Origin: Candidatus Woesearchaeota archaeon
GTDB lineage: Archaea > Nanobdellota > Nanobdellia > Woesearchaeales > SKGA01
Length of the DNA stretch: 64,000 bases
Assembly: GCA_016926395.1 (NCBI GenBank)
Contig: JAFGOT010000035.1
Coordinates: 692-64,691 of the forward strand
Reading direction: 5' to 3'
A program made the translations under genes and the position numbers. The notes beneath the pieces are model-generated. The model did no database searches, was not told where the DNA came from, and saw only the letters and a list, made by a program, of their open reading frames with translations. Numbering within the stretch: the stretch's first letter is position 1; the number at the start of each line of letters is the position of its first letter. Below, piece after piece: positions 27,081-63,923 of this stretch.

Positions 27081-27163
27081 TTGTCTAAAAACTCCATTTA
27101 TATATGTTTGTTTAGTTTTTTCCCAAACGTTTTTATAGCTGTTATATATAAAATATTTTGAAG

Positions 27164-36339: not shown

Positions 36340-36378
36340 GGTTTAAAAACGCGGCGTTTCTTGTTTAATTGAGTGGTA

Positions 36379-38015: not shown

Positions 38016-38020
38016 GGTGT

Positions 38021-39127: not shown

Positions 39128-39152
39128 TTATAAGCCCTCTACGCGTTGTTCT

Positions 39153-39169
39153 TTAGTTTTCTTTCAAAA
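39153..39169 (+). promoter_or_regulatory. Shared 17-nt promoter-proximal motif, copy 2
   Basis: Identical TTAGTTTTCTTTCAAAA, followed by CATTTTTAAAT, 34 nt before the epimerase ATG. Confidence 0.5.
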
Positions 39170-39202
39170 CATTTTTAAATCACTTTTCAACCTTTCATAC
39201 TT

Positions 39203-40309: not shown

Positions 40310-40315
40310 GATGTA

Positions 40316-46548: not shown

Positions 46549-46575
46549 TTTTTTTAAATTTAATGAGGTCTTAAA

Positions 46576-47265
46576 ATGAAATTGCCTTTGTTTGTTTCTA
46601 AATTAGTTTCGAAAGTTGTTATTTATTTTAAGTACAGAATTCACAACTCTAAGATATCTTCTAATGCAAAAATATTTCCTTTTGATAATGTTGTTTTAGG
46701 AAAAAATGTTTCTGTTGGGGAAGGTGCTGTGTTATCAGGTAATTTGTTTGTTGGGGATTACACTCACATAAATAGAAATTGTGATTTTAGTGGTGGGAGA
46801 AGTGTTGATGTAGTTTTAGGAAAGTTTTGTTCTGTTGCATCTGGAACATCAATAATAAATTCTAACCATTACACTAATAGAATAACGACGTACGGTATTA
46901 AGGAAGAACTAGGTTTAAATTGTAAAAAGAAGGACTATTATGAAAAAGGACCTATTACAATAGGTAATGACGTTTGGATTGGTCGTGATGCAATTATTCT
47001 TTCAGGAGTGAGAATTGGTAATGGTGCAATTGTTGCTGCTTCGGCTGTTGTTTCCAAGGATGTTGATGACTATGAAATTGTTGGTGGCATTCCTGCTAAA
47101 CACATAAAGTACAGATTTTCTGAAGAGGTTAGAACGTTATTATTATCTTTAAAATGGTGGGATTGGTCAGAAAAGAAAATACGTGATAATAGTTTAATTT
47201 TTGATTTGGATTTAACTAACCAAGATGATATAAAAAAGTTGAGAGATATTGTTAATAAAAAATGA
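46576..47265 (+). CDS. Hexapeptide-repeat acetyltransferase (xenobiotic/Vat-CatB-like)
   Basis: IGNDVWIGRDAIILSGVRIGNGAIVAASAVV..GGIPAK, then the WWDWSEKKI tail typical of this subfamily. Confidence 0.8.
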   Translation: MKLPLFVSKLVSKVVIYFKYRIHNSKISSNAKIFPFDNVVLGKNVSVGEGAVLSGNLFVGDYTHINRNCDFSGGRSVDVVLGKFCSVASGTSIINSNHYTNRITTYGIKEELGLNCKKKDYYEKGPITIGNDVWIGRDAIILSGVRIGNGAIVAASAVVSKDVDDYEIVGGIPAKHIKYRFSEEVRTLLLSLKWWDWSEKKIRDNSLIFDLDLTNQDDIKKLRDIVNKK

Positions 47266-48644: not shown

Positions 48645-49284
48645 ACGAATACGTTCACTTTGGACTGAAAACGCACCTCATCTTTGGTGGGGTGATCCTC
48701 TGGATGTCCGGTTCTTTTTGTGCGAAGAGTTATCTCGCTTTAAAAATAAGAACGTATTGGATGTGGCATGTAATGCAGGTATTGTTTCCTCATTGATGAC
48801 TCATTGTGATGTTACTGGAGTGGACATTAATAAGGATGCCATTGACGTTGCCCGCCGGATTAATCCTTCCTTCAAATATTTTGTTGCTGACATATTTAAA
48901 TTAAATAATCTTTTTGAAAACGAGTCATTTGATATAATTATTCTATCACATGTTTTACCAAAAGACAATTTTCCTTCAGAAAAATTTCCGATTGAATTAA
49001 TGGATGTTATTTTTCCTTTATTAAAAAAAGGAGGTATATTGTTTATTACTACCCCCAATCCAGCTCGTGCATTCAACGGGAAAAACAAGTTTATTAATGA
49101 TGTTTATTTAACTCATTTGCTTAATAGGTATAATTTGCGTTATGACTTAAGGTATTGGTGTAAATGGAACATACATTTAAATCATCTATTCAAGTTTATA
49201 CCTAACATTTGGAATTTGCTAATAAGTATGAGTTTTAAAAAAGGAAGGAGTGTAAGTTTTTATGTTAAAGCAATTAAAAAATAA
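48631..49284 (+). CDS. Class I SAM-dependent methyltransferase
   Basis: VLDVACNAGI, DIIILSHVL, LKKGGILFITTP. Confidence 0.75.
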   Translation: MKNYKRIRSLWTENAPHLWWGDPLDVRFFLCEELSRFKNKNVLDVACNAGIVSSLMTHCDVTGVDINKDAIDVARRINPSFKYFVADIFKLNNLFENESFDIIILSHVLPKDNFPSEKFPIELMDVIFPLLKKGGILFITTPNPARAFNGKNKFINDVYLTHLLNRYNLRYDLRYWCKWNIHLNHLFKFIPNIWNLLISMSFKKGRSVSFYVKAIKK

Positions 49285-50191
49285 TCTAATATGGTTTATT
49301 AACTTATTAGACAAGAATTTTCACTTACACATATTTCCAAGAGATCGAATTTTTTCTCTAGACTCTAATGATTTGGTTATTTTTAAGAATAGAAAACTTG
49401 TTTTAAACACGAACCGTTATGGATTTGACATGTTCTATTTTTGTTGTTCTTTTGATTACTTAAATGAACATTATTTTTGTTTTCAAGCATCCAAGTTGAA
49501 TAAAGATCTTTCTCACTCTTCGTTTATTTGTATCATTGATTCAAAAAATAACCTTGTTAAAAAAATATCTGCTAAAGAATTAGGTTTTTCATCATTTTCT
49601 TCGTTACAGGTGTTAGTTGATGATAAACCAATCTTATATTTCTGTGCAGACAATAACAAACAATTTTCATTATATTCTTTGATTTTGGAAGATATTGGTT
49701 TATATTCAAAACCTACTTTGTTACGAAGGGATATTTTTCAGTTCAGTATTTTTAGCTTTAAAAATAAATTTATAATAATTTACAAAAAATCTAATGATAC
49801 TTCTTTGAATGCCGTGAAAACTGCCGACTTTTTACATTTTTCAGATTGGAAACTAAATTTAATAACTGCTGAAGATTTTGTTTTTATTGATAATCCATCC
49901 ATTGTACAAAATGATTCAACTATACATTTATTTTGTAGAATTTCTCATCATAGTGCCTTAGAATCTAATATAATATCTTTCACTTCTTCAGATGCGCATA
50001 CTTTTAATCAGTCATCTGTTAGATTGTTACCTTTACACAATCGTTATGAACGACATTCTACCGCTTTTCCATTTGTTACAACTTTTGATGGTAAATTTCG
50101 TCTATATTATACAGCTTATTGGGGATTTCATTTGTTGAATAAATTAACAATAAAGAGATGGGTTAATAATAAACGTTCTTCAGGTAAATAA
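49262..50191 (+). CDS. Hypothetical protein (possibly a beta-propeller glycosidase/transferase-like fold)
   Basis: 309 aa with weak resemblance (FPFVTTFDGKFRLYYTAY) to 5-bladed propeller sugar enzymes. It is embedded in the glycan operon. Confidence 0.4.
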   Translation: MLKQLKNNLIWFINLLDKNFHLHIFPRDRIFSLDSNDLVIFKNRKLVLNTNRYGFDMFYFCCSFDYLNEHYFCFQASKLNKDLSHSSFICIIDSKNNLVKKISAKELGFSSFSSLQVLVDDKPILYFCADNNKQFSLYSLILEDIGLYSKPTLLRRDIFQFSIFSFKNKFIIIYKKSNDTSLNAVKTADFLHFSDWKLNLITAEDFVFIDNPSIVQNDSTIHLFCRISHHSALESNIISFTSSDAHTFNQSSVRLLPLHNRYERHSTAFPFVTTFDGKFRLYYTAYWGFHLLNKLTIKRWVNNKRSSGK

Positions 50192-50192
50192 A

Positions 50193-50870
50193 ATGGTAAT
50201 TAAAAAATTAAAGATTTATGGTAAGTTGGCTAATCGCGAGAGTTTGAAAGATTACATTTCTAAAATAAAAAACAATCCTAACACTCTAAAATTGCGTGTA
50301 TTAAAGCATGTTGCTTCTAATATGGCTGATGTTCATTTTTTAGATGTTGGTGCCCAAATGGGTGCTTACCTTTTTCATCTAAGCAAAGAGAATAATTTCA
50401 AACAGCTTGATGGTATTGATATTGAACCAGAATTTATTTCTCTTGGGAATAAATATTTAGTCAATGGGCTTGATAATGTAAACTTGTCTTTGACAAATCT
50501 ATTTGATATTAATAATAAGAAATATGATTTAATTTTTATGTCCGAAGTTATTGAGCATGTTGATAATCCTTTAGCTTTTATTACGAAAATATATTCTTTA
50601 CTTGAGGCAGGGGGACACTTTGTAATAACCACGCCTTCAGGTAATAGTCTAACAAATATACTTTTGAATATTAAGCATTTTAAAGATTTATCTTATATTG
50701 AGAATGAAAAAAGAGGTTTTGGCACGGAAACAGACCATTATTATTGTTGGGACAAATTGACTTTATTCCGTCTTTGTAATAGTGTTGGTTTTAAGTATGT
50801 TGACCATCGCATCTCAAATCGTTTCAGACCTATAAAAGGTCAATCAATCATCTTAATTGTTAAGAAATAA
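50193..50870 (+). CDS. Class I SAM-dependent methyltransferase
   Basis: FLDVGAQMGAY, DLIFMSEVIEHVDNP, GGHFVITTP. Confidence 0.75.
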   Translation: MVIKKLKIYGKLANRESLKDYISKIKNNPNTLKLRVLKHVASNMADVHFLDVGAQMGAYLFHLSKENNFKQLDGIDIEPEFISLGNKYLVNGLDNVNLSLTNLFDINNKKYDLIFMSEVIEHVDNPLAFITKIYSLLEAGGHFVITTPSGNSLTNILLNIKHFKDLSYIENEKRGFGTETDHYYCWDKLTLFRLCNSVGFKYVDHRISNRFRPIKGQSIILIVKK

Positions 50871-52341
50871 ATTTTGATTTTAATTCTTTTATTTCTTTAA
50901 CTGTAACTGTTTTGGTTGTTATTAATATTGAACAGTAAATTATAGCAAGAACCAAAACAAATAATGCTCCAGAAATTAAATTATTAATTTTGAACTGTGA
51001 ATTAATTATGATTCCTATTGCTGTGGTTATTGCTCCGATAAAAATTACTAGAAAATGACCTTTATTAAATGTAACTTTTGTTTTGCTTTTAACGTGAATA
51101 AAACCAAGTACAAACATTAATGTGTACCCAATTACTGTTGTAATTGCAGCTCCTTTAAGCCCTAATGCAGGTATTAACAAAAGATTTAGCAAAAAGTTTA
51201 TTGCTCCTCCGAAAAGAGTGTACTGAGCAATTTTTTTTGTTTCACCTATTGCAAACAAAACATTGAAATTGGTCGTTGATAAAAGACCCATTAATCCTGC
51301 AAAAATTAATATTTTTAATACGGCACCTCCTGCGATATATTGTTTACCGAAAAGAAGGATTACTATTTCCTTTGATAGTATTGTTATTATTCCAACCAAT
51401 GGTAATGTTACCAACAATAAGTATTTGTAGATTTGTTCAATTCCTTCCTTGAGATGTGTATACATTTTTTTTGCCCACAACTCAGATGTCATAGGTATCA
51501 TAACTGTGCTAACTGCGGTACTGACATATATTAGAATACTTGATATTGGAACTGCAGAATTATATATTCCAACGTCTGACGTTGTTTTTAGTATTGAAAT
51601 CATAAATGTATCTATGTTTTGCAGAAGTAATCCGCCTAATGATGCAAATATTGTTGGAAGTCCAAAAGTCCAAAGTTGTTTTGTTATTGATTTATTTTTG
51701 TTTATTCTTTTTATTTTTGGAATTAATTTTTTTCCAAACCATGAAAAATAGAGAACTAACAAAGTCAATGAAGTTATTATATATGAGAATATAGGTGCTT
51801 GGATTTTAAGACCAAATTTTAACAATGGTATGACTATTATCAGTGACAAAATTTGTCTGATGAATTGAAATGAGGCATACTTAAAATGTTTTTGAAATGC
51901 AGTTAATATTTGTGCCATTGTTTGATCAATTCCTTGAAACAAAAACAACAAACTGAACAATCTAACTTCAAAAACAAGTTCCACTGAGTGAAGATAGTGT
52001 ATTGCAATATATTTGGATAATATCAATGCTGAGGTAGCCAAAACAACACTGGTGGCACCAATAATTTTGACGCAATAATTAAACACAATTTTAGCTTCAG
52101 ATAATTTTTCATTCGCAATATATTTAGAGATATAAGTGACCAACGCTTGACCCATGCCAAGTCCTCTAAATAAAAACAATAATGACATAAATGCATAAAG
52201 TGAATAAAATAATCCATACTCTTCAACGGTTAAATTTCTTGCTAAGACCATTCTATAAACATAACCTATAACTGCACCTAGCATAGTCATTAAGAATACC
52301 CAGAAAAATCCTTTAACTGCTCTTTGAGTATAGTTTGTCAT
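50860..52341 (-). CDS. Oligosaccharide flippase (Wzx/MOP superfamily, AglR-like)
   Basis: 493 aa with about 12-14 TM helices and the typical polysaccharide biosynthesis protein architecture. It is convergent with the plus-strand glycan operon (11-nt overlap). Confidence 0.85.
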   Translation of the reverse strand: MTNYTQRAVKGFFWVFLMTMLGAVIGYVYRMVLARNLTVEEYGLFYSLYAFMSLLFLFRGLGMGQALVTYISKYIANEKLSEAKIVFNYCVKIIGATSVVLATSALILSKYIAIHYLHSVELVFEVRLFSLLFLFQGIDQTMAQILTAFQKHFKYASFQFIRQILSLIIVIPLLKFGLKIQAPIFSYIITSLTLLVLYFSWFGKKLIPKIKRINKNKSITKQLWTFGLPTIFASLGGLLLQNIDTFMISILKTTSDVGIYNSAVPISSILIYVSTAVSTVMIPMTSELWAKKMYTHLKEGIEQIYKYLLLVTLPLVGIITILSKEIVILLFGKQYIAGGAVLKILIFAGLMGLLSTTNFNVLFAIGETKKIAQYTLFGGAINFLLNLLLIPALGLKGAAITTVIGYTLMFVLGFIHVKSKTKVTFNKGHFLVIFIGAITTAIGIIINSQFKINNLISGALFVLVLAIIYCSILITTKTVTVKEIKELKSKFIS

Positions 52342-52342
52342 T

Positions 52343-53446
52343 TCATTCCTCTATAATATTTTCAAACTTCTCAATAGTTTTTGTCCAATCAAAGTTGTTC
52401 TTCACTTTCTCTTTTATTTTTTTAGAAAATTCGCTTCTTAGTTTTTTATTTTCTAATTTTTTCAATGCTTTTTTTATTTCATCAACACTTTTAGACTTAA
52501 TTAATATTCCATTGATACCATCATCTATTATTTCATTTGTTCCACCAACGTCTGTTGCTATTATTGGCAAACCTATCGCCCCTGCTTCTAGTACGCTTGT
52601 CGGTAGTCCTTCTGAGTATGATGGGTTTACGAAAATATCTGACTCGCTTAGAATTTTAATTATTTCTTTTTGATTTTTTTGTCCTAAGAAATTAACTTTA
52701 ACTTTTAACTTGAAACTTAACTTTTCTAATTCTTTTTTATATGGTCCTTCGCCAACAACATTCAACACATAATCTTTTCCTTTTACTGCTTCTATTATGT
52801 GTTGTATTCCTTTGGCATATATTAATCTTCCAACATATGTTATTGTAGTTTTCTTATTCTTTTCACTTTTTATTTTACTAAATTGACTTGTATGTATTGA
52901 ATTATGTATTGTTGTTGTTTTTTTAGCTCCTAGTTTTTTTGAGAAAGAAACGCATTTTTTTGAAATTCCAACAACCAAATTTGCTTTGCTAATAACAAAA
53001 CGTCCTAATGTCTGATCATATATCCATGCAGCTATTGTTACAATAGGGTTTTTATGTGTTACAAACTTATTTCCATGCTCTATGTGTATAAATTTAGATT
53101 TCATTTTTTGAGCTAATTTAAGCCCAATAAATGTGCTTGTAAAGAAGCGAGTGTTGGTTATAACAACATCATATTTTTCATTTAATATTTTTTTTCTTAA
53201 TTTTTTATATTCAAAACTAAACACTTTAGGAATTGAGTATGTGTCCCCAAGAATTTCAAAACAAGGAAGGCGGATTATGTTTATATTGTTTTTTTTCTCA
53301 AATTCTTTTAGTTGTTTGTATTGAAATGTGAGAACATCAACTTTGTTACCTTTCTTGGCAAGTCCGTTTGATAGTTCTAATGCAAACTTTTCTAGTCCTC
53401 CAACGTATGGATAAAAATGATTAGCAACAATCAGTATTTTTTTCAA
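52343..53446 (-). CDS. Glycosyltransferase family 4
   Basis: N-terminus ILIVANHFYPYVGGLEKF and C-terminus SEGLPTSVLEAGAIGLPIIATDVGG. Confidence 0.85.
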   Translation of the reverse strand: MKKILIVANHFYPYVGGLEKFALELSNGLAKKGNKVDVLTFQYKQLKEFEKKNNINIIRLPCFEILGDTYSIPKVFSFEYKKLRKKILNEKYDVVITNTRFFTSTFIGLKLAQKMKSKFIHIEHGNKFVTHKNPIVTIAAWIYDQTLGRFVISKANLVVGISKKCVSFSKKLGAKKTTTIHNSIHTSQFSKIKSEKNKKTTITYVGRLIYAKGIQHIIEAVKGKDYVLNVVGEGPYKKELEKLSFKLKVKVNFLGQKNQKEIIKILSESDIFVNPSYSEGLPTSVLEAGAIGLPIIATDVGGTNEIIDDGINGILIKSKSVDEIKKALKKLENKKLRSEFSKKIKEKVKNNFDWTKTIEKFENIIEE

Positions 53447-53465
53447 TTTTGTTTTCCCCTAAGGT

Positions 53466-53813
53466 TCATTTCTTTTTTTCTTTCTTATCAACTTCTTTGT
53501 ATGCGATTGTTCTTACTAATTTTTCTAGTTTGTTTTCCGTTTTGTTTACTTTTTGATGTAAATAAAACATTAAAACCAAGAAGAACGCAAAGCCAATTAG
53601 TGTTAGAAAGTCTATTGTTCCTGTGACGCTTAGTTTACCGCCCACTCCTGATATTATTTGAGGAAATATTGATAAAATAATCACTATCAGCCATATTCCT
53701 CCCCAGAGTGCTAATCCTTGTTTGCTAGTTTGGTTTCTTTTAAACCCATGAAATGTTAGGTAAAACATTGCTAATGCAAATAATATTCCCAAAATTTGTA
53801 TTCCAAGTACCAT
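53466..53813 (-). CDS. DUF2304-like small membrane protein
   Basis: 115 aa with 4 TM helices. It lies directly downstream of a GT2 gene, which is the usual partner arrangement. Confidence 0.65.
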   Translation of the reverse strand: MVLGIQILGILFALAMFYLTFHGFKRNQTSKQGLALWGGIWLIVIILSIFPQIISGVGGKLSVTGTIDFLTLIGFAFFLVLMFYLHQKVNKTENKLEKLVRTIAYKEVDKKEKKK

Positions 53814-53823
53814 TTTTTTAGTT

Positions 53824-54522
53824 TTACTTTCCTCCTAGTAGTTGTATTGCTTTCCATTTGATCATTTGAATTAATATTTTGATTCCGTGTATTGGGGTAG
53901 TTCCTTTGTAATTATCTAAGTATATTGTTTTTATTGGTATCTCTTTATATTTTAATCCCTTTGCGTTGACTATCATTTCTGTTTCCATACCATATAGCTT
54001 AGATTCCCATCGCAACTGTTTGTACACGTTTCTTCTAAATGTTCTAAAACCTGATTGTGTGTCTCTAATTTTTGCTCCAAACATTATACGAACCAACCAC
54101 GTTAATCCCCAGTTTCCAACACTCATTAGAAATGGAGATTTTCCTTCAGAAGTCCTATATCCATACACTATGTCTGTGTTTTTTAGCGCTTCTAGAAATC
54201 TTGGTATATCTTCTGGTTCGTGTTGTCCGTCCGAATCCATCAGAATAAAGATATTGTATTTTTCTTTGTAAGCAAAGTCACAACCTGTTCTTGCCGCGTT
54301 ACCTTTTCCAAGATTTATTATGTGTCGCAAGACAACGTCTGCTTTTGATTCTTTTGCAATCTTTGAGGTATTATCTGCACTTCCATCATCGATAACTATG
54401 ATTTCTAGGTCTAATTTATTTTTTAGAGAAACATGTTTTATTCTTTTTATTACTTCAGAAATGTGTTTTTCTTCATTCCATGCAGGCATAATAACTGCTA
54501 TTTTCTTTGCCATGACAACCAC
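53824..54522 (-). CDS. GT2 dolichyl-phosphate sugar synthase-like glycosyltransferase
   Basis: IAVIMPAWNEE, VIDDGSADNT, MDSDGQH (DxD). Confidence 0.9.
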   Translation of the reverse strand: MVVMAKKIAVIMPAWNEEKHISEVIKRIKHVSLKNKLDLEIIVIDDGSADNTSKIAKESKADVVLRHIINLGKGNAARTGCDFAYKEKYNIFILMDSDGQHEPEDIPRFLEALKNTDIVYGYRTSEGKSPFLMSVGNWGLTWLVRIMFGAKIRDTQSGFRTFRRNVYKQLRWESKLYGMETEMIVNAKGLKYKEIPIKTIYLDNYKGTTPIHGIKILIQMIKWKAIQLLGGK

Positions 54523-54604: not shown

Positions 54605-57388
54605 TTATTGTTCACTACTTAAATTTACTTTGTAAACAATTATTCTTTGACCTGTAAAGTCTGTTATGTCGCTTAGTACTTCATAACCTTTCATCCCAAC
54701 ACCTTCAAAGAAGAACAATCTTGTAAACGCTCCCGTTCCCATTACAGTATCGCTGATTATTGCTTTTACTCCTTTTGGAGTATTCGCAACCGCTAATTCG
54801 TAGTCAAGTGTACTGCTTGGTATTTGGTATGTTTTTGTTTCTTCTTCAGTTATTATGCTAACTTCTTTTGGTACTAAAGAATCACCACTACCAACTTTTT
54901 GGTTGCCGTTATATAGTCCAATACTGATTTTTGTGTTTAGAGGATTATTCTTTGGAATTGTCGCTGTTTCCATAACGACTTGTCCGCCTTGTTGTTGTCC
55001 TATGACTTGGTTAATTGAACAAGTATACTCTGTTGCTGTTTCTTTACATGATTTTGCATTTGCGGTCACGTAATTTGGCCAAGGGCTAATCCAGCTATCA
55101 ACCGATCTACTATCTGCAAGAGTATTGATTTCATAGTACATATTGTTTAAAGTATCTTCATCATATGGGCTTTGTTCTAATAATATTTGAAGTGCTTTGT
55201 CGTACGGTTTATTTTTGAATGTGTTGTATACGAACGCTTTATCAAAATCCCAACTTCCAAAGTGGGCCCAAACGCCTGCTTTTCCTACCATGTCTTGAGA
55301 TGTGATGTAGTATTGATCTAAAAGTTCACTATCATCGCAATGAGTCTTTTCTAACACGCTGTTTGCTTCGCTTTCGCTAAGACCTATTCCCAAAAGATTT
55401 GCTTTTGCTTCATCTTTTGTTTGGTAGATTATTTCATTTATTTTTTTACTTGCTAAATAACTGTTATTTGTATATTCAAATATTCTCTCATATCCTTTGT
55501 TTTGACCGCAGTTAAGCATTCGAAGAATTGCTTTGTTTTCAGTTAGATTTTCAGTCATTAAACTTTTTCCAACCCAATATATTCTCTTGCCTTGGTCTCC
55601 ACCATCAAATGTTACTCTTGTTTCTGCAACATTAACAAACCAATGTCCAAAATCCCACCAACTAGTTATTATTCCGTCATTAGTGTCATTTTTAATTGTT
55701 GTCAGACTGTTATACCATGCATCGTTCATACTTGGAACTTCACCTATTGCTACTGCATTAGCAGATTTTATTGGTGCGATAAATAATATTAAAATCAAAA
55801 CAATTAGTGTTATTTGAGTTGCGATTTTTGGTATTTGCATACTTTTTTTTATCCACACACTTCCTTTTGTCCATAGTATTCCAAAGAATACTCCAAATGC
55901 AATTGCGAAAGGTGCTGCAAGTAATGCTATGAATCTTGATGCAATAACTCCCATTATTGCAATTCCAATAAACCAAAATGTTAACAATGCTGCATATCTT
56001 ATTTCTGGTTTTCCACTTTCTGTTTTTATGAAAAAAGTTAGTAACACTCCAAGAAGACCTATGGTGAATAATACTTTACCACCAACTGAGGCGATAACTT
56101 GCGCCCAGCTTCCTGCATTTAGCTCTGCCACTGTTGTTAAAACGTTTGGCCAGATGTTGCTTCCTGTTGCAACGTTTTTTATGTGGAGGGCCATTATAGG
56201 TCCTGCAAGCATTTGTTTTGTCGGTTCAAATATGTTTTGAACGAATGAATTGTTACTAACTGATGTCAGTCCTACAATTGCCAGTATCAATCCTGATATT
56301 AATAGGAACGAGATACCAACTATTATTGCTTGTCCACCACTTGTTTTTGTTATTTCTTTGAAGTTTTTACTGTTGTATTTATTCCATTCTTTATTGATGA
56401 TTAATGAGTATATGAAATGAACTCCTAAGACTCCTAGTAATAAACTTCCGATGTACCACCAGTATGACCAACTGTATCTAAATAAAACAATCCCTATTGC
56501 TGATATGCTTGTCCAGATCATTTTTTGTTTTATGTCTTTTGCTGTCATTGCTTCAAGGGCTGTCCAGGCAATTAGAAGTGGGAACATTATTATGTATGAA
56601 TCCGTATCTGAAAATCCTGCAGGTGTCCTGCCAAGTAGTGCGGTGTTAAGTGCGATTGCTAATCCTGCTACAAATCCTGCTACATTCCCGCCTATTTTTC
56701 TTGCTAAGAAAAAAGCAAAAATAATTGCTAGTGATATAAGAATTACAGGCAAGATGAACATTGCTCTTTGTAGTGTGAAATCTTTATTGAATATTGATCC
56801 TATTTTATGTACTAATACTCCTAATGCTGGATGAATACTAAATCCTGTTGGTCTTGCTTCTCGGCCGTTTCTTAGACTAAAGCTTTGTTTTCCATCTACT
56901 ATTTCATCTCCTTGAAATCCGTTTGCTTCTATGTTTTTTGCTTGTGAATACCATAAATATGGGTCTATTGCCAGAAGATATGTGTTGTCGTTTTCATCTT
57001 GTAATTGTGATTTAAAATATTTTGACGTTTGTTCTACTTGTTTGTTATAATCTTCCTTCTGGGCGGTTATAACTTTGTCTACTTCTTCGTTGATTAGTTG
57101 CTGTTTTTGTGCTGTTGGGAGATTTGGATATTGGCTGCTTACTTGACTACTTACTTGGCTTGATATTTGATTTTTTATGCTATCCTCGGCCCATTTATCT
57201 GTTGCTGGTAAGTCTGACGGGTACATCCTAAAAAATGTACTAAGTCCTATTGCAACAAGGATTAATACTACAATTAACCATTTCTCGTTTTGTTTGTTTT
57301 TAAAGAAATTAACTTTTCCTGTTTTGCTTTCTTCAGTAGAATTGTTTGTTTTTTGTTTTTTTTCGTGCTTTGTATGTCTCTTTGCCAC
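54605..57388 (-). CDS. aglB: Archaeal oligosaccharyltransferase AglB (STT3 family)
   Basis: 927 aa. N-terminal multi-TM domain with GFSDTDSY (DxD), catalytic WWDFGHW (WWDxG), and a large C-terminal soluble domain. Confidence 0.95.
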   Translation of the reverse strand: MAKRHTKHEKKQKTNNSTEESKTGKVNFFKNKQNEKWLIVVLILVAIGLSTFFRMYPSDLPATDKWAEDSIKNQISSQVSSQVSSQYPNLPTAQKQQLINEEVDKVITAQKEDYNKQVEQTSKYFKSQLQDENDNTYLLAIDPYLWYSQAKNIEANGFQGDEIVDGKQSFSLRNGREARPTGFSIHPALGVLVHKIGSIFNKDFTLQRAMFILPVILISLAIIFAFFLARKIGGNVAGFVAGLAIALNTALLGRTPAGFSDTDSYIIMFPLLIAWTALEAMTAKDIKQKMIWTSISAIGIVLFRYSWSYWWYIGSLLLGVLGVHFIYSLIINKEWNKYNSKNFKEITKTSGGQAIIVGISFLLISGLILAIVGLTSVSNNSFVQNIFEPTKQMLAGPIMALHIKNVATGSNIWPNVLTTVAELNAGSWAQVIASVGGKVLFTIGLLGVLLTFFIKTESGKPEIRYAALLTFWFIGIAIMGVIASRFIALLAAPFAIAFGVFFGILWTKGSVWIKKSMQIPKIATQITLIVLILILFIAPIKSANAVAIGEVPSMNDAWYNSLTTIKNDTNDGIITSWWDFGHWFVNVAETRVTFDGGDQGKRIYWVGKSLMTENLTENKAILRMLNCGQNKGYERIFEYTNNSYLASKKINEIIYQTKDEAKANLLGIGLSESEANSVLEKTHCDDSELLDQYYITSQDMVGKAGVWAHFGSWDFDKAFVYNTFKNKPYDKALQILLEQSPYDEDTLNNMYYEINTLADSRSVDSWISPWPNYVTANAKSCKETATEYTCSINQVIGQQQGGQVVMETATIPKNNPLNTKISIGLYNGNQKVGSGDSLVPKEVSIITEEETKTYQIPSSTLDYELAVANTPKGVKAIISDTVMGTGAFTRLFFFEGVGMKGYEVLSDITDFTGQRIIVYKVNLSSEQ

Positions 57389-57722
57389 GTTTTACCACCC
57401 ATTATGAGCATTATTTTATACTTCCTTTGCTATTTGCTTTCCATTTATATCTTTTTGGTGTTTTTTTGATTTTTTGAGTTGTATTTTTTCTTTCTTGATT
57501 TTCTAATTAGGCACTATTTTTCATTTCCGTGATTCTCTTTGAAATGTCTGATTTGGCCAGTTTCAGAAGTTGTGTTTATTAATTTTGCGTTAGCTTTTTA
57601 TCTTTTCTTTGTTTTTCACTATTTTTCCTGTTGGTGTTTATCTTTGTATTTATAAATAGGACTTCGTTCGTGTTGTCCTAGCACGGTAGTTACATACAGA
57701 AAGATTTAAATATTAGTTGTAT

Positions 57723-57736
57723 CTACTATATAGTAG
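57723..57736. promoter_or_regulatory. Perfect 14-bp palindrome just downstream of a TATA-like box, in front of the surface operon
   Basis: CTACTATATAGTAG (7 of 7 pairs), with TTTAAATA at 57705-57712. The first ATG of the operon is at 57786. Confidence 0.4.
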
Positions 57737-57785
57737 TGTTCGATATTCTTATCGAGTATTTCATAAAAAGAGGGTTGAAATCAAA

Positions 57786-58310
57786 ATGGAAAAAAATTAT
57801 CTTGCGCTAGATGCGCAGTCTAAAAAAATGGCTAAATTAAAGACATATCTTATTGGCGGCGCTATTGCTCTAGGTACTGCTGGAATCATGTATTTCGCAA
57901 TGAAAAACAATTCTAAAGAAACGCCTGTAAATTACAACAATAATATTCCTGCTGTTATCATTAATGGTAGTAATATTGATGTTAATGCTCCTATCACTGT
58001 AATTCAAAATCAAACAACTGTCTCTGATGGTAGTGCTTTAGTAATTACTGCTCCGTATCATGTTGGAAATTCTTCCTGTGATTCTTGTTATACTTTAACT
58101 AATCCTGTTGATACTCTTCCAGCTGATGATCTTACTAAAAAAGTAATAATTAACACTGAAAAAAAAGAAGAAAAAAAGAAAGAGAATAAGAAAAAAGAAA
58201 CTAAAATTATTTCTTCAATCGACGATTGTGTTGGCGGAAAAGATCTCTTTCAAGATTCAATTTTGTTAAATGATCTTCAAAAATCTCTTTACGAGAATCA
58301 AATTAATTAA
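57786..58310 (+). CDS. N-terminally anchored small surface protein (paralogue A)
   Basis: Single TM (LIGGAIALGTAGIMYFAM), a beta-rich ectodomain with VITAPYHVGNSS, and a Lys/Glu tract. ATG at 57786 was chosen. Confidence 0.6.
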   Translation: MEKNYLALDAQSKKMAKLKTYLIGGAIALGTAGIMYFAMKNNSKETPVNYNNNIPAVIINGSNIDVNAPITVIQNQTTVSDGSALVITAPYHVGNSSCDSCYTLTNPVDTLPADDLTKKVIINTEKKEEKKKENKKKETKIISSIDDCVGGKDLFQDSILLNDLQKSLYENQIN

Positions 58311-58323
58311 TGGGGAAATTAAA

Positions 58324-58686
58324 ATGAAACACGATAAAAATTCAAAACAAAATTATTTTACTAGATATGTTTTACCTATTGCAGGCGGTCTTGCAGTTGG
58401 TGGTGCAATTGTTTTTGGTGCTATGAAATATAATCAAAAAAATGTTACTGATTCATACACTCCTTCTGTTGAATTAGGTCACACTATTGATGCACCTATG
58501 ATTAGTTCTCCTGTAAATCAATTTTATGTTGATAAAACTTCTAATGTTGTAATTACAGGAAATTTTAATGTTGGTAATAATTCAGGTAATGCTGAAAAAA
58601 ACGTTCCAACTTCTAGCAACGTCAAAATAACTAATGGCTCTCTTGATGTTGTTGTTAATGATTCTTTAGTAATGGTGAAAAAATGA
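58324..58686 (+). CDS. N-terminally anchored small surface protein (paralogue B)
   Basis: Single TM (VLPIAGGLAVGGAIVFGAM) and VVITGNFNVGNNSGN. The architecture matches the preceding gene. Confidence 0.6.
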   Translation: MKHDKNSKQNYFTRYVLPIAGGLAVGGAIVFGAMKYNQKNVTDSYTPSVELGHTIDAPMISSPVNQFYVDKTSNVVITGNFNVGNNSGNAEKNVPTSSNVKITNGSLDVVVNDSLVMVKK

Positions 58687-59864
58687 AAAAATCAAACAAA
58701 TTCAGAAATGCTGTTCTTGGAACTGCTGCAGGTTTAGGTATGCTACTTGCTACTTCATGTAGTACTCAAAAAATGACTTCCACTTATGGTCTTCCAACAA
58801 CTCCGATTGTTGATAATGTTCAAACAGAACAAGTTTCACAACTAGATACTCTTCCAGTATCTAATGGTGTTAATTACTTTACTGATGCTGTTGTTGAAGA
58901 AGAAAATAATAATGCTGAAACTTCTGAATTTGGTACACGTCTAAATGCAAGAAAAGTTATGAACGAACAAGAATTAAGAGATTTAAGAAAAACTCTTTAT
59001 CCTGTTAATACTAATCTTAATTTAGGTGCACAAAATTTATATCTTAAACCAGTTCTAGCTGCAAATGGTGACACATTAAATTTTGTTCTTGGTGCTGTTT
59101 CACCAGATTACAAATGCACTCAAATTTCTAAAGAAGAAGGAGTTGATTTACTTAACAGAAACAAAAAAACACCTTCTAAGAAAGTGGTTACTAGTAATAC
59201 TTTCACTGGTGAGCCAGTTAAAGTTAACTATGACAATAATAAATTTGGTGTTGGTATAAATCCAAAATTTGCTTTTGGCAATGGTTTTGGTCTAGCTGCT
59301 GATGCAAACATTTTCAACTTTTTAGTGTCTGTTGAATCTCCTTTATACAGTACTGATTTTTCTAGTAAAATAAATTCTTTAGATTCTTACGAAAATCAAA
59401 CTGAAAGAAGACAAAATGGAGATATGAATCTTACTTATGTTATTACTACAACTGATCACAAAGGATTAGCAACTCAAGATTTTGGTTGGGGTTTTGGCGC
59501 TGGTTATCAATTACCTATTGGCAATTGGAGATTAGGTCTAACTGCAAACGGAAAAAAATCTACTGTTAACATTTCCGAATCTTCAGAAGAACTTTCAAAA
59601 GAAGTTTTCTCAACTATTGGTGATGTTCCGCAAGGTCCTGAAGATGCAACTCTTTGGTCTGAGTCTAACTCTACATCCCATTCTGGTTGGTACTTGGGTG
59701 GAACAGCAAGAGTTTCTTATGTTCTTAAAAATGGTTTAGAATTTGGTGTTAATGGAAGTTTATTAGCTCCTTTGAAAGGGGTTAAAGAATTTGACTTTAA
59801 TAGCGCAAAAATTCAAACTGATAATTTAACCAATCTTGGTTTTATGGTGAGATATAACTTTTAG
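58683..59864 (+). CDS. Lipobox-containing protein whose C-terminal half resembles an outer-membrane-type beta-barrel
   Basis: The signal LGTAAGLGMLLATSC has a Cys at the lipobox position. The C-terminal ~215 aa has alternating-hydrophobic strands (FGVGINPKFAFGNGFGLAA, FGWGFGAGYQLPIGNWRLGLTA, GWYLGGTARVSYVL, LEFGVNGSL) and ends in NLGFMVRYNF. Confidence 0.6.
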   Translation: MKKSNKFRNAVLGTAAGLGMLLATSCSTQKMTSTYGLPTTPIVDNVQTEQVSQLDTLPVSNGVNYFTDAVVEEENNNAETSEFGTRLNARKVMNEQELRDLRKTLYPVNTNLNLGAQNLYLKPVLAANGDTLNFVLGAVSPDYKCTQISKEEGVDLLNRNKKTPSKKVVTSNTFTGEPVKVNYDNNKFGVGINPKFAFGNGFGLAADANIFNFLVSVESPLYSTDFSSKINSLDSYENQTERRQNGDMNLTYVITTTDHKGLATQDFGWGFGAGYQLPIGNWRLGLTANGKKSTVNISESSEELSKEVFSTIGDVPQGPEDATLWSESNSTSHSGWYLGGTARVSYVLKNGLEFGVNGSLLAPLKGVKEFDFNSAKIQTDNLTNLGFMVRYNF

Positions 59865-59876
59865 GGGAACTAAAAA

Positions 59877-62498
59877 ATGAAAAAATTACTACTTTCAATG
59901 TTTTTTCTTTTTGTTCTAACTTTATCTTTAGCTTCAGCTATTACTGTAAGCATGGTCTGGGATGACAATGGTGTTTACGGTACTGATCCTATTAATTTAG
60001 AACAAGGGGAAACAGCTCAATATATTGTTGATGCGTACACTACTGCAGGTCCAAATGCAGGTTACGACCACTTAATTGGAGTGGACTTGTATGTTCTTGA
60101 AGCAGATGATTTAACTCAGATTGTTCAAGTTATTTCTCAAGAGACCCATCTTTATAGTCTTGGCTATGCTAATACTTTAGATACTTCAAGTTTACCTGTT
60201 GGTGACTACACTCTTGCTGCTATTGCAACTGATTATGATGATACTTATCCAAATGGTGGTAATAGACAAGATACTGCAATTCTGAATTTTAGTGTTCTTA
60301 TGCCAACATATGCTCCTGTAATGCAAGAAGTAGTAATTAATCCTGCTAATCCAACAATTGCAGATAATTTAACTGGAACTTGTATTGCTACAGATGCTGA
60401 TTCAACTAATGTTATGTATGAATATCAATGGGTTCAAGTAATTCCTATTAGTGCTGTAGAAACAACTTCTTATTATCCACAAAATACTGTTGTTCCTGTT
60501 AATGGAATTGATTCTTCTCAAACAAGTTTAAATCAAGTTTGGGAACTTAGATGTAGAGCTTTTGATGGTGCTCTTTATAGTAGCTGGATGAGTACATCTG
60601 TTACTATTGCTGATCTTCCACCACAAAACAATGCACCTGTAACTCTTTTTTCATTCATCTTACCAAACACACCTGGAGACGATGATATGCTTAGTGGTTA
60701 CTGTTCTGCTTTTGATGCTGATGCTGATGCTGTTGCATTCAATTGGGCTTGGTATCAAAATGGTGCTGTGGTTTCACAAGGTATTTCAAATTATTTCACT
60801 GATTTGTCTGGACCAATACAAGTTTCTAATTATAGTGAAACTTTCACTAATGTTGGTGATGATTTCATCTTTGCTTGTCAAGCATATGATGGTCAAGATG
60901 CTGGTGCATGGCTTAACAGTTCAAACGTAACTATTTCAGGTGGTTCAACTGGTAATGTTGCTCCTGTTAATTTAACTGTTTCAGTTCCTTCACAATTAAA
61001 CAGTACTCAAGATCTTCTAGGGACTTGTGTTGCTGATGATGCTGATGGAGATTTATTATATTACAACGCTAGATGGTACTTAAATGGAGCTTTCTTCTCA
61101 GGAACAAGTTCTATTCCTTTAGCACCTGGAGTTGCTTTTAGTGCATCCATGCCTGCATCTTACACTTCTGTTGGTGATGTTTGGACTTTAAGTTGTGATG
61201 TTACTGATGGTCAAGTTACTGTTGGTCCTGTTTCTGGTTCAACTTTGATTGTTGATGGGACTGGTAATAACAACGCTCCTGTTAATTTAACTGTTTCAGT
61301 TCCACCTCAAGTTAATGATGCACAAAATGTCATTGCTACTTGTGTTGCTGATGATGTTGATGGTGATTTGCTTCATTATGGTGTTGAATGGTATCAAAAC
61401 GGCGTTTACCTTATTGGTTCTAGCTCCGGTTGGATTGCCTCTGGAGTTGACTTTACTGCTACTCTTTCATCTGCTTTCACTTCTGTTGGTGATAATATTA
61501 CTATTAGTTGTGAAGTTACAGATGGTCAAGATATTGTTGGTCCTGTTAATGCTTCAACTAGTATTGTAAGTAACGGTGGTTGTTTAACTAATCCTGTTGC
61601 AATTATAGCTGGCCCTACAACTGTTGACGCTAACACTTTAGCAAGTTTTGATGCAAGTGGTTCTGTCGCTTCGAATTGTGGAACTATTGTTTCCTATGAT
61701 TGGAATGTGACTTGTGGCTTACAATCTGTTGTTTTTAGCGGTGTTACTTTCAACTATACTTTTGCTACTTTAGGTGATTGTTCTGTTGAGTTAACTGTTA
61801 CTGATGATAGTAATTTAACTGCATCCGACGTGCTAAATGTTACGGTTGTTAACCCTTTTGCACAAGGACCTACTGCAATAATAAAAGCACCTCAATTTGT
61901 TAACAAAGGTGAAGAGTTTGTAGTTCATGGATTTGATTCAATTGCACCTGCTGGTGAAGAAATTGTTTCATATCAATGGGTAGTTACTAACAGTTTAGGA
62001 GTTGTTGTTGCAACTTACTCTGGTAAAATGCAATATCCTTTATTTGATGTAGCTGACCAATATACTTTCACATTAACTGTAGAAGATACATCTGGAGACT
62101 TAGACTCTGCAAGTAAAATTGTTACTGTAAAAGAGCCTGAAGCTGCTGATGAAGACGATACTTTTAAAATAAAAGACAAATTACAAGTTAGTTCAATCCA
62201 CTTGGAAGGCTCTGCTTTCGAACAGGTTTCTCCAGATGGTTTGCTATATGTAAGTGTTGTTGTTAAGAACAATTTCGACGAAAGAGTTGATGACGTTCAA
62301 GTAACTTTCTTGTTACCTGAGCTTGGTCGATTCAAAAGTTCAACAAGTTCAATATCTTCTGGAGATAGTAAACGATTCACTGTTTTAGTGGATATTCCTT
62401 ATGATTTTGAGGAAGGTTACTATTACCCTGAAATTATTGTAGATGCTGATCAAGTCGATAAGAGAGTTAAAATCTCTTATTTCGAGGTTGTTAACTAA
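59877..62498 (+). CDS. Large secreted adhesin-like protein: 4 tandem Cys/DxDxD Ig-like repeats, 2 PKD-like domains and a CARDB-like C-terminal domain
   Basis: Signal peptide (LFVLTLSLASA). The repeats have the pattern TC.A.D.DGD...W..NG...VGD....C...DG. PKD-like segments are (FDASGS...VSYDWNV...LTVTDD) and (VSYQWVV...LTVEDTSGD). Confidence 0.8.
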   Translation: MKKLLLSMFFLFVLTLSLASAITVSMVWDDNGVYGTDPINLEQGETAQYIVDAYTTAGPNAGYDHLIGVDLYVLEADDLTQIVQVISQETHLYSLGYANTLDTSSLPVGDYTLAAIATDYDDTYPNGGNRQDTAILNFSVLMPTYAPVMQEVVINPANPTIADNLTGTCIATDADSTNVMYEYQWVQVIPISAVETTSYYPQNTVVPVNGIDSSQTSLNQVWELRCRAFDGALYSSWMSTSVTIADLPPQNNAPVTLFSFILPNTPGDDDMLSGYCSAFDADADAVAFNWAWYQNGAVVSQGISNYFTDLSGPIQVSNYSETFTNVGDDFIFACQAYDGQDAGAWLNSSNVTISGGSTGNVAPVNLTVSVPSQLNSTQDLLGTCVADDADGDLLYYNARWYLNGAFFSGTSSIPLAPGVAFSASMPASYTSVGDVWTLSCDVTDGQVTVGPVSGSTLIVDGTGNNNAPVNLTVSVPPQVNDAQNVIATCVADDVDGDLLHYGVEWYQNGVYLIGSSSGWIASGVDFTATLSSAFTSVGDNITISCEVTDGQDIVGPVNASTSIVSNGGCLTNPVAIIAGPTTVDANTLASFDASGSVASNCGTIVSYDWNVTCGLQSVVFSGVTFNYTFATLGDCSVELTVTDDSNLTASDVLNVTVVNPFAQGPTAIIKAPQFVNKGEEFVVHGFDSIAPAGEEIVSYQWVVTNSLGVVVATYSGKMQYPLFDVADQYTFTLTVEDTSGDLDSASKIVTVKEPEAADEDDTFKIKDKLQVSSIHLEGSAFEQVSPDGLLYVSVVVKNNFDERVDDVQVTFLLPELGRFKSSTSSISSGDSKRFTVLVDIPYDFEEGYYYPEIIVDADQVDKRVKISYFEVVN
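60312..61571 (+). repeat. Four tandem ~100-codon coding repeats inside the adhesin gene
   Basis: The repeats cover about aa 146-246, 251-354, 359-459 and 466-565. The last two share long identical DNA strings, for example CTCCTGTTAATTTAACTGTTTCAGTTCC at about 60961 and 61276. Confidence 0.8.
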
Positions 62499-62633: not shown

Positions 62634-63923
62634 ATGAATACAAAATTATTAACAATTTTGTTTGCGGTCTTCACTCTAGTATCTATGGGTGTTGTAGTGG
62701 CTGCTCCAAGCAATGCGACTGTTGATTTAGAAGTTTTATCTTTAGATATTAACGGTCATGAACAAGGTCTTTTCGGCAACGATCTAAATTTAGAAGTAGC
62801 TCGTGGTGAAAAATTAGATCTTGAATTAGAACTAGGAACATTAGCAGATGTTTCTGACGTACAAGTTTCCGCTATGATTGGTGGTTATGAATACAGTAAT
62901 TATGAATTTGACAAAGTCTTTGACATGTCAAGAACATTTAACTTACAAGCAGGAGACAAAAAATTTGTTTCACTAGAACTTGAAGTTCCAGTAAACATTG
63001 ATCCTGATTACGCAAAACTGTACATTGAAGTACACAGTCGAGATGAACTTCGACAATCTTATTACTATGAACTTAACATTGTTAATGTAGAAAATGGTAA
63101 TGAAGTTCTTATTAAAGATGCATACCTATCTCCATCCAGTGAAGTAATGGCTGGACGAGCATTAACTGCTACTGTTCGAGTAGAAAACATCGGTCAACAA
63201 GACTTTGATGATGCAACTCTTTTAGTAAAAGTTCCAGCACTTAACATTCAAGCTGTTGAAACTATTGAGAATCTAGAAGTTGGCGAAAAAGAAACTTTTG
63301 AAGAATTAGTTTTACGTTTCCCAAAAGATGCTCAACCTGGAGATTATGTTGTTGAATATACTGTTAAATACGATGAATATGAATCCGTAACTAAAACTGC
63401 TGTTGTTCACGTTTCTGAATGTGCAGATGTAACTTGCGGTGCTGCTGTAAAAGAAAATGATGTTGTAACTCAACTATTCTTTGACAGTGAAAAAATCGTA
63501 GATGCAAAATCCGGTGCAACATTCCCAATTATGATTCAAAATACTGGAAACAGCCAAAAAAGTTATACTTTAGCTGTATCAGGTGTTGATTCATGGGGAA
63601 CTGCTACTCTTAGTGAAGGCTCTTTAGTTGTAGTACCTGCAGGTGCAATGGTTCCTGTTTACGTACATGTTGTTGCTAACGACAACGCTGCAGCTGGTGA
63701 ACATTCATTCTCAGTAACTGTTGCAAGTGATGGTGCACAAGATGTACTTCCTATGAAAGCAGTTGTTACCGAAGACGGTAGCAAAGACCGAAGCGGTCTA
63801 CAAAAAGCATTAGAAATTGGTCTAATTGTTTTAGTTGTTATCTTAATCCTTATTGGATTAATCATTGGCTTCAACAAGCTACGTGGTTCTGATGACGACG
63901 AAGACGCAAAGACTTACTACTAA
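62634..63923 (+). CDS. Candidate S-layer/major surface protein with a C-terminal TM anchor
   Basis: Signal peptide (FAVFTLVSMGVVVAAPS), CARDB/NEW3-like beta-sandwich segments, the TM IGLIVLVVILILIGLIIGF and an acidic tail. A strong SD (GGGAGG) and TTTAAATA at 62548-62555 lie upstream. Codon choice differs visibly from neighbouring genes, which suggests high expression. Confidence 0.75.
   Translation: MNTKLLTILFAVFTLVSMGVVVAAPSNATVDLEVLSLDINGHEQGLFGNDLNLEVARGEKLDLELELGTLADVSDVQVSAMIGGYEYSNYEFDKVFDMSRTFNLQAGDKKFVSLELEVPVNIDPDYAKLYIEVHSRDELRQSYYYELNIVNVENGNEVLIKDAYLSPSSEVMAGRALTATVRVENIGQQDFDDATLLVKVPALNIQAVETIENLEVGEKETFEELVLRFPKDAQPGDYVVEYTVKYDEYESVTKTAVVHVSECADVTCGAAVKENDVVTQLFFDSEKIVDAKSGATFPIMIQNTGNSQKSYTLAVSGVDSWGTATLSEGSLVVVPAGAMVPVYVHVVANDNAAAGEHSFSVTVASDGAQDVLPMKAVVTEDGSKDRSGLQKALEIGLIVLVVILILIGLIIGFNKLRGSDDDEDAKTYY

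Follow-up and report, generated by a model that had tools for sequence, protein, structure and literature searches.

To our knowledge, transmembrane β-barrels count as a hallmark feature of the outer membranes of bacteria and of the derived organelles, and archaea are thought to possess neither such proteins nor the machinery for their assembly. Bacterial barrel lipoproteins include the outer-membrane type represented by GfcD/YjbH and a type with soluble 8-stranded barrels (TbpB, fHbp); all these proteins require the Lol, BAM (β-barrel assembly machinery) or Slam pathways, none of which we know from archaea. An archaeal pore protein, Ihomp1 (Imp1227) from the outer membrane of Ignicoccus hospitalis, has been proposed to reside in a non-cytoplasmic membrane and is small and α-helical. 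Here we analyze a 64,000-nucleotide stretch (hereafter, the window) of contig JAFGOT010000035.1 from a Candidatus Woesearchaeota archaeon (assembly GCA_016926395.1), which encodes a protein, denoted p3, that combines a lipobox-like N-terminal signal with a C-terminal domain resembling bacterial outer-membrane proteins (OMPs). Together with two membrane proteins, p1 and p2, it is encoded by the first three genes of a cell-surface operon that is located next to aglB and is conserved in a narrow clade of Woesearchaeota-type DPANN archaea. We assign a rough probability of 45% to the interpretation of p3 as a lipid-tethered surface protein with an OMP-like, lipid-facing β-barrel that acts with two membrane anchors and an adhesin.

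57786..58310, plus strand: p1, 174 amino acids (aa), bitopic membrane protein (open reading frame (ORF) and hydropathy)
58324..58686, plus strand: p2, 120 aa, a shorter paralogue of p1 (BLASTP and six-sequence alignment)
58683..59864, plus strand: p3, 393 aa

The initial annotation described three coupled genes, and its coordinates and the cited peptide motifs are all found in the sequence. The gap between p1 and p2 is 13 nucleotides (nt), p2 and p3 overlap by 4 nt (ATGA), and 12 nt separate p3 from the gene for a protein with PKD domains (the "adhesin"); a Shine-Dalgarno-like GAGG or GGGG precedes every start. None of p1, p2 and p3 matches Pfam, NCBIfam or PHROG at normal thresholds. The p3 protein is divided as follows.

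58683..58760, plus strand: signal peptide with the lipobox-like LLATS-C26 (lipobox at nt 58746-58760; pattern match)
58761..58928, plus strand: variable linker rich in S/T/P/Q/E, aa 27-82 (alignment gaps, low conservation)
58929..59213, plus strand: conserved middle domain, aa 83-177, about 95 aa (conservation)
59214..59864, plus strand: C-terminal OMP-like β domain, aa 178-393 and the stop codon, about 215 aa (amphipathicity profile)
59241-59276, 59283-59333, 59424-59456, 59475-59516 and 59523-59555, plus strand: candidate strands 1-5 of the C-terminal domain
59646-59669, 59682-59726, 59733-59774, 59787-59816 and 59826-59861, plus strand: candidate strands 6-10 of the C-terminal domain

The C-terminal domain contains 7-8 strong and 2-3 weaker amphipathic segments of 8-17 aa; those of 11-17 aa are longer than typical strands of β-sandwiches. 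The strand motifs and the C-terminus on which the proposal of an OMP-type barrel was originally based are present at p3 residues 187-393. For calibration, four 50-kb stretches of the Escherichia coli K-12 genome (169 ORFs) were used alongside an archaeal test set of 191 ORFs. Amphipathicity was measured with a home-made dyad score, which counts, per 100 aa, the 9-residue windows in which five hydrophobic positions alternate with polar or small residues. The three highest-scoring E. coli ORFs are OmpX, OmpT and OmpW (2.92, 2.52 and 2.36 dyads per 100 aa, respectively); the p3 C-terminal domains score 3.24, 3.24 and 2.78, and the p3 proteins are the top three of the archaeal set. In the amphipathic windows of p3, Gly makes up 33% of the polar strand face, compared with 21% for OMPs and 13% for other proteins, and aromatic residues make up 31% of the hydrophobic face, compared with 34% and 16%, respectively.

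The last strand, LTNLGFMVRYNF, bears a β-signal-like end, ...GFMVRYNF, in which the hydrophobic and aromatic positions counted from the C-terminus are F(1), Y(3), V(5), F(7) and L(9), in agreement with the generic OMP β-signal (terminal Phe or Trp, hydrophobic or aromatic residues at positions 3, 5, 7 and 9). The three complete p3 proteins end in L-G-F-M-V-R-Y-N-F, V-G-F-M-V-R-Y-N-F and I-G-L-M-L-R-Y-N-F, so that this pattern and the xRYNF motif are invariant (3/3). When the C-termini were scored by a rule demanding F/W/Y at position 1 and hydrophobic residues at positions 3, 5 and 7, the only ORFs retrieved from the archaeal set were the three complete p3 proteins, and the E. coli set yielded five OMPs and one other protein. 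The terminal β-signal-like pattern noticed in the initial annotation is thus borne out and exceeds chance expectation.

In Pfam scans with the isolated C-terminal domain, its fragments and the family consensus, the best-matching family is repeatedly OMP_b-brl (PF13505; E=8e-4, 2.9e-4, 0.0023, 0.021 and 0.18), and two of the alignments extend to the last position of the profile. Weaker matches are to MspA (E=0.009-0.017), DUF5982 and NCBIfam PorV2, of which MspA and PorV2 are membrane β-barrel families. An hhalign comparison of the p3 profile with the 169 single E. coli proteins yields no individually significant match; nevertheless, 7 of the 10 β-barrel OMPs are found among the top 20 (hypergeometric P=1e-5). 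Taken together, these comparisons indicate that the OMP-like signature of p3 is real, conserved and unusual for the host genome; they fall short of identifying the C-terminal domain as a closed, membrane-embedded barrel.

The p3 N-terminus, MKKSNKFRNAVLGTAAGLGMLLATSC, fits a PROSITE-type lipobox rule. No other ORF of the window is a plausible lipobox candidate; the two further matches to this rule fall within the gyrA ORF, on the opposite strand, and in a segment of a major facilitator superfamily (MFS) transporter. The LLATSC motif with Cys26 is invariant in the four lineages that encode p3, and the residues that follow the cysteine vary. The site reads L(-4)A(-3)T(-2)S(-1)C(+1), to be compared with the canonical [LVI](-3)[ASTVI](-2)[GAS](-1)C(+1). 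The p3 protein would probably be lipid-anchored at Cys26. An archaeal lipoprotein pathway is plausible given that lipoproteins and the lipidation enzyme AliA have been reported to be widespread in DPANN archaea (PMC12462473). The linker, a putative flexible tether, is about 29 aa shorter in one of the complete homologs (P0003). The middle domain appears to have roughly a β-α-β-β-α arrangement (DSSP helices at 95-105 and 150-158, assigned with low confidence) and has no Pfam match at E<=1​0.

The p3 proteins form an orphan family found in four lineages and represented by three complete proteins (the one from the window, P0002 and P0003) and one partial sequence, on which all the statistics given here are based. 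The two other complete members were identified by an exhaustive search with phmmer, which covered 1.84 billion representative proteins, and by two word-seeded searches, one with a sequence and one with a profile, of 5.8 billion proteins. The fourth, incomplete lineage (L023) was recovered through synteny with a p2 homolog detected by the p1/p2 profile, and a match in the JGI metagenomes (L018) belongs to the P0003 lineage. The p3 sequences of L001 and L002 show 67% and 43% identity, respectively, to the window protein, and the lineages share about 45-68% identity. No p3 was detected in the GTDB genomes or in IMG/VR, an absence that carries little weight because these scans used two short peptide patterns.

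This distribution bears on the possibility that p3 is a horizontally acquired bacterial OMP gene, as suggested in the initial annotation, or else that the contig is a bacterial-archaeal chimera; the OMP features would then persist as a relic without a function in archaea. The sole support for such an origin comes from the OMP-like character of the sequence itself together with the weak PF13505 matches. No bacterial homolog is present among the 1.84 or the 5.8 billion proteins, and no homolog of any kind was found beyond the four syntenic archaeal lineages in the protein sets, GTDB genomes, JGI metagenomes and IMG/VR. The GC content of p3 (0.327) and its GC content at third codon positions (0.14) are the same as those of the neighboring genes. 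Recent horizontal transfer is rejected on the grounds of this native composition and the lack of bacterial relatives. The conservation of the family (45-68% identity, key residues invariant) speaks for purifying selection acting within archaea and thus contradicts the idea of a relic devoid of function. The junction between aglB and p1-p2-p3 is found again in two further assemblies from other samples (L001, L002), and the p1-p2-p3 or p2-p3 adjacency recurs on three shorter contigs from different samples (L003, L018, L023). Because this synteny recurs in independent assemblies, a chimeric join at 57.4-57.8 kb, which had been considered a potential source of artifact, is ruled out as well. We therefore consider a horizontal or chimeric origin of p3 to be largely refuted, indeed essentially excluded.

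Several observations weigh against a lipid-facing barrel. We know of no archaeon for which a transmembrane β-barrel or a BAM/Omp85 machinery has been established, and there is no Omp85-family or BAM gene among the scanned ORFs of the window (64 kb of the genome). None of the Pfam and NCBIfam matches reaches its curated cut-off, and composition could account for them: the PF13505 alignments score 21.5 bits (E=2.9e-4, a P0003 fragment), 20.0, 18.5 (consensus) and 15.4 bits, compared with the gathering threshold of 28.7, and the window p3 itself has no OMP_b-brl match. The loop lengths lack the clean alternation of short turns and long loops that is seen in classical OMPs. A soluble fimbrial subunit, YcbU, reaches a dyad score of 2.22, and for this reason amphipathic density alone cannot separate membrane barrels from secreted β proteins. 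At the other end of the protein, the -3 position of the lipobox is occupied by Ala rather than L/V/I, and ATS/C also fits a signal-peptidase-I site; the lipobox-like pattern pointed out originally stands, with its invariant cysteine, but its assignment is ambiguous.

Structure prediction adds to these difficulties. The AlphaFold2 model of full-length p3 (2 sequences) has a predicted local distance difference test score (pLDDT) of 26.6, and that of the C-terminal domain (3 sequences) has a pLDDT of 44.7 and a predicted template modeling score (pTM) of 0.38, with the first 84 residues of the domain unmodeled; both models are too poor to decide the fold. The low-confidence model of the domain contains two hairpins with strands of 12-23 residues. 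A Foldseek search with the better model against the PDB yields no match at E<=1e-3. The top rows, all non-significant, are OMPs mixed with membrane attack complex (MAC), gasdermin and pleurotolysin pores, but membrane β proteins filling such a list are uninformative because any long-hairpin model would give them. A sequence search of the PDB with two profiles returns noise only. Of the OMP-type barrel put forward in the initial annotation, the OMP-like character is measurable (dyads, strand faces, C-terminus, sub-threshold PF13505 similarity), whereas the closed barrel with a hydrophobic belt is putative, the long-stranded hairpins of the domain model being a feature in its favor.

The main alternative, which is quite possible, is that p3 is lipid-tethered but soluble or associated with the S-layer, its C-terminal domain being a β-sandwich, a jelly-roll or a closed soluble barrel. 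The hydrophobic faces would then be buried in the core or in protein interfaces, either within an oligomer or by β-augmentation with the strands of p1 and p2, and the complex, requiring the cytoplasmic membrane only, would anchor or organize the PKD protein or the S-layer near the N-glycosylation machinery. This is the default expectation for a single-membrane archaeon, and it is consistent with the position and content of the operon, which adjoins aglB and an extensive set of glycosylation genes and codes for an 873-aa protein without an anchor as well as for an anchored immunoglobulin (Ig)-like protein. The failure of AlphaFold2 to yield a closed, confident barrel, the sub-threshold status of every match to OMP families and the amphipathic-strand density of the secreted, Ig-like E. 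coli fimbrial subunit all point the same way. There are also 5-6 N-x-S/T sequons in the domain, some within predicted strands, although sequon counts are uninformative. What a soluble fold explains less readily is the solvent-exposed face that the G-x-G-x-G-x-G-x-Q-type runs would form, which would be unusual, and the composition of the strand faces, which is that of OMPs and not of other proteins. The strands of 11-17 aa are long for such a fold, the invariant C-terminus with F/Y/hydrophobic residues at 1-3-5-7-9 is found in no other archaeal ORF tested, and the recurrent best Pfam match is OMP_b-brl rather than a soluble β family.

If p3 is a lipid-tethered protein with an OMP-like barrel, it would be exported via Sec, cleaved and lipid-modified at the invariant Cys26, and would hang from the cytoplasmic membrane on the variable linker of 30-55 residues, beyond which the conserved middle domain and the C-terminal domain follow. 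The latter would fold into an OMP-like β-barrel of about 8-10 long amphipathic strands, with the aromatic/aliphatic face outward and the Gly/polar face inward, and the terminal ...F-x-V-x-Y-x-F strand would close it. The hydrophobic belt would be embedded in lipid other than that of the cell's own cytoplasmic membrane. Given that no outer membrane has been demonstrated, this lipid would have to belong to the host cell, where its membrane is contacted, to an outer layer not described so far, or to a vesicle. The p1 and p2 proteins would be N-in bitopic membrane-side partners of p3, and the co-transcribed anchorless adhesin would supply attachment. Two membranes have been reported for DPANN ARMAN cells (PMC4243693), and cryo-electron tomography of another DPANN archaeon reveals an unidentified secretin-like, barrel-shaped envelope structure (PMC11329633); in contrast, according to a recent preprint, only Ignicoccus is known to possess two membranes.

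The envelope structure mentioned above is also compatible with a variant of the membrane interpretation, in which the C-terminal domain contributes a few long amphipathic hairpins to a large oligomeric β-pore of the MspA, secretin or pore-forming-toxin type; such a ring would cross the envelope or perforate the membrane of the host, with the middle α/β domain as the ring-building module. The two hairpins predicted by AlphaFold2, the weak MspA matches and the pore proteins among the top Foldseek rows can be cited in its favor. However, all these matches are non-significant, there is no match to Pfam Secretin or to a ring-building motif, and the 7-8 amphipathic strands per chain, along with the β-signal-like last strand, suit a monomeric barrel better, so that we consider an oligomeric pore improbable.

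A more far-reaching proposal, which we consider possible but less likely than not, is that p3 represents the first transmembrane β-barrel of archaeal origin. It would be either a lipid-tethered, BAM-independent barrel or an oligomeric β-pore, inserted in the host membrane or in the cell's own outer lipid layer at a contact made by the adhesin, with p1 and p2 forming the cell-side base of a trans-envelope conduit for the uptake of lipids or metabolites.

The two genes upstream of p3 encode paired membrane proteins with the following elements.

57846-57902, plus strand: transmembrane (TM) helix of p1, aa 21-39, preceded by a short basic N-terminal tail
58035-58076, plus strand: strand motif of p1, ALVITAPYHVGNSS
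58158-58205, plus strand: K/E-rich linker of p1
58215-58298, plus strand: conserved Cys-containing C-terminal motif of p1, SIDDCVGGKDLFQ...LYEN
58366-58425, plus strand: TM helix of p2, aa 15-34, likewise preceded by a short basic N-terminal tail
58543-58584, plus strand: strand motif of p2, NVVITGNFNVGNNS (the protein ends with a short SLDVVVNDSLVMVKK strand)

The paralogy of p1 and p2 proposed in the initial annotation is real and limited in extent: BLASTP aligns the two proteins with E=8e-7 and 39% identity over 79 aa that span the TM helix and the strand motif, and the common region includes a (V/I)(V/I)(I/V)T/N..(Y/F)xVG strand. Orthologs of p1 are present in L001, L002 and L018, and p2 homologs are P0005, P0007 and P0008. 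Six orthologs and paralogs of both types can be aligned together, and in all lineages they share the N-terminal tail, the TM helix and the strand motif. A search with the p1/p2 profile finds proteins of both types, all of them in the few lineages known for p3. A type IV pilin-like signal was considered for these proteins and rejected, given that no [KR]G/A cleavage motif precedes the hydrophobic stretch on inspection by eye. An archaeosortase-type C-terminal sorting signal was rejected, given that no TM helix follows the motif.

The genes that flank p1-p2-p3 are also conserved. The order is aglB (minus strand), then p1-p2-p3 and the PKD adhesin, followed by the anchored Ig-like protein where the contig reaches that far.

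36373-54522, scanned ORFs only: sugar gene cluster of about 18 kb beside aglB
54605..57388, minus strand: AglB/STT3 oligosaccharyltransferase, 927 aa (Pfam STT3 E=4e-34, STT3-PglB core)
57700..57716, plus strand: candidate archaeal B-recognition element (BRE)/TATA box, AAAGATTTAAATATTAG, about 70 nt upstream of the p1 start (read from sequence)
59877..62498, plus strand: PKD protein ("adhesin"), 873 aa (Pfam PKD_4 E=2e-13)
62634..63923, plus strand: Ig-like protein with NEW3/CARDB/FixG_C domains, 429 aa (Pfam NPCBM_assoc E=8e-9)

The aglB gene is the conserved left neighbor, divergent to the operon, in L001 and L002 as well, and the cluster including the adhesin recurs in both. The 397-nt region between aglB and p1 (57389-57785) is strongly T-rich on the plus strand and contains the BRE/TATA-like AAAGATTTAAATA at 57700-57716, a candidate promoter element; a scan for sigma-70 promoters yields chance-level matches only. 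The 873-aa PKD protein begins with a Sec signal peptide; some five internal repeats of about 105 aa share the motif CVADDxDGDxLxYxxxWYxNG, which has no Pfam assignment, and are followed by two PKD domains and a C-terminal domain. It lacks a C-terminal or membrane anchor and, therefore, must be held at the surface by another protein; L001 encodes an ortholog, and so does L002, where the available 190 aa are 45% identical. The 429-aa Ig-like protein starts with a signal peptide and ends with a TM anchor plus an acidic tail; it has an ortholog at the same position in L001 and is a candidate cell-surface, S-layer-type or stalk protein. The scanned ORFs of the sugar gene cluster encode an oxidoreductase, a hexapeptide acyltransferase, an epimerase/dehydratase fused to a GT1 domain, GT4 and GT2 transferases and a Polysacc_synt/MurJ-like flippase, and this is presumably the N-glycan assembly locus for the adjoining surface proteins.

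Judging by its gene content, the window originates from a Woesearchaeota/Nanobdellota-type DPANN archaeon with about 32% GC. The archaeal identity of the host, assumed from the outset, is supported by the SecY protein, which is 68-72% identical to proteins of metagenome-assembled genomes labeled Woesearchaeota or Nanobdellota, and by the presence of AglB/STT3, RadA, aRF1 and PCNA. The window also encodes a RadB-like paralog, TrmB, an archaeal YidC/EMC3-like insertase, RNase J, gyrase A and two ribonucleotide reductases. SecY proteins with 53-72% identity are also found on contigs labeled "Acidobacteriota bacterium" or "uncultured Methanosarcinales archaeon" (L014, L005/L008/L016; GTDB), which are probably mis-binned or mislabeled DPANN contigs. 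Other features of the window are listed here.

3606-4190 (minus strand), 16634-17959 (minus strand), 18099-18806 (plus strand) and 23233-23868 (minus strand): ORFs of 194-441 aa without a Pfam match at E<=1e-3
12306-14786, minus strand: bacterial-type DNA gyrase A, complete, 826 aa (E=4e-166)
22052-22591 and 22594-23229, plus strand: MFS transporter in two back-to-back ORFs, 179 and 211 aa (different parts of the MFS_1 profile)
25503-27080, minus strand: full-length GH3-family protein (N-terminal, middle and C-terminal domains all match)
27158-28948 and 29193-31472, plus strand: pair of ribonucleotide reductase large-subunit-type genes, 596 and 759 aa (Ribonuc_red_lgC, about E=1e-112 each)

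The bacterial-type gyrase A is known from some archaea and is worth noting for the placement of the lineage. The split MFS transporter could be a pseudogene, the result of a sequencing error or a pair of half-transporters. The GH3 protein, whose occurrence in a DPANN archaeon is unexpected, is an acyl-acid amido synthetase of the plant auxin-conjugating type, and the tandem ribonucleotide reductase genes represent an unusual duplication in a reduced genome.

In the literature searched, there is no description for archaea of a lipobox-type anchor combined with an extra domain and an OMP-like tail, nor of its presence in a BAM-less archaeon, nor of its constant linkage with an adhesin gene and aglB; what comes nearest is a possible PopA-like relative in Altiarchaeales (PMC12228718). 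DPANN archaea cannot make many building blocks, and p3 may bear on how they tap their hosts. With its predicted lipid anchor, OMP-like domain and adhesin linkage, the family offers a concrete, clonable candidate that could be used to test whether β-barrel membrane proteins exist in archaea, how they would fold without BAM and whether contact with the host is mediated by them. Should the C-terminal domain turn out to be soluble, the family would still be a new surface module linked to an N-glycosylation locus, and a warning that OMP-type sequence signatures can arise outside membranes.

Among the described systems, Ihomp1 differs from p3 in that p3 is β-rich, Ignicoccus does not belong to DPANN and the two proteins show no sequence relationship. 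The MspA pores resemble p3 in the weak Pfam matches (E about 0.01) and in the long predicted hairpins, and the organisms that produce them, like the p3 host, lack a classical Gram-negative outer membrane; however, the matches are non-significant, and each p3 chain contains far more amphipathic strands, the last of which is of the OMP type. With the lipobox lipoproteins of Haloferax volcanii that depend on AliA/AliB (PMC12462473), p3 shares a Sec-type signal and a conserved cysteine in a lipobox-like context, whereas the OMP-like β domain and the Ala at -3 set it apart from the known archaeal lipoproteins, most of which are solute-binding or redox proteins. The bacterial GfcD/YjbH, TbpB and fHbp have the same general layout, namely an N-terminal lipid-anchor signal, a tether, a C-terminal β-barrel-type domain and a neighborhood of surface or polysaccharide genes; they show no detectable sequence relationship to p3, and the dyad score of GfcD (1.15 per 100 aa) is well under the 2.78-3.24 of the p3 C-terminal domains.

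The closest likeness of the p3 C-terminal domain is to the small bacterial OMP barrels of the MBB clan (PF13505: OmpA-N, Omp25/31, Opa-like). Unlike these, p3 shows similarity below the curated threshold, has homologs in four archaeal lineages only, comes from an archaeon without a known outer membrane or BAM machinery, and adds a lipobox-like signal, a linker and a 95-aa domain to a β domain whose closure into a barrel is putative. As in these OMPs, a domain of about 200 aa consists of long amphipathic strands with a Gly-rich inner and an aromatic-rich outer face, at an equal density of dyads, and its C-terminus follows the hydrophobic-x-hydrophobic-x-Y-x-F pattern of OmpX (...GVGYRF) and OmpW (...SAGYRF). 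Given that the p3 family falls below the gathering threshold, the one formal test available, the resemblance to OMPs is best taken not as established membership in the family but as an indication of the likely mechanism.

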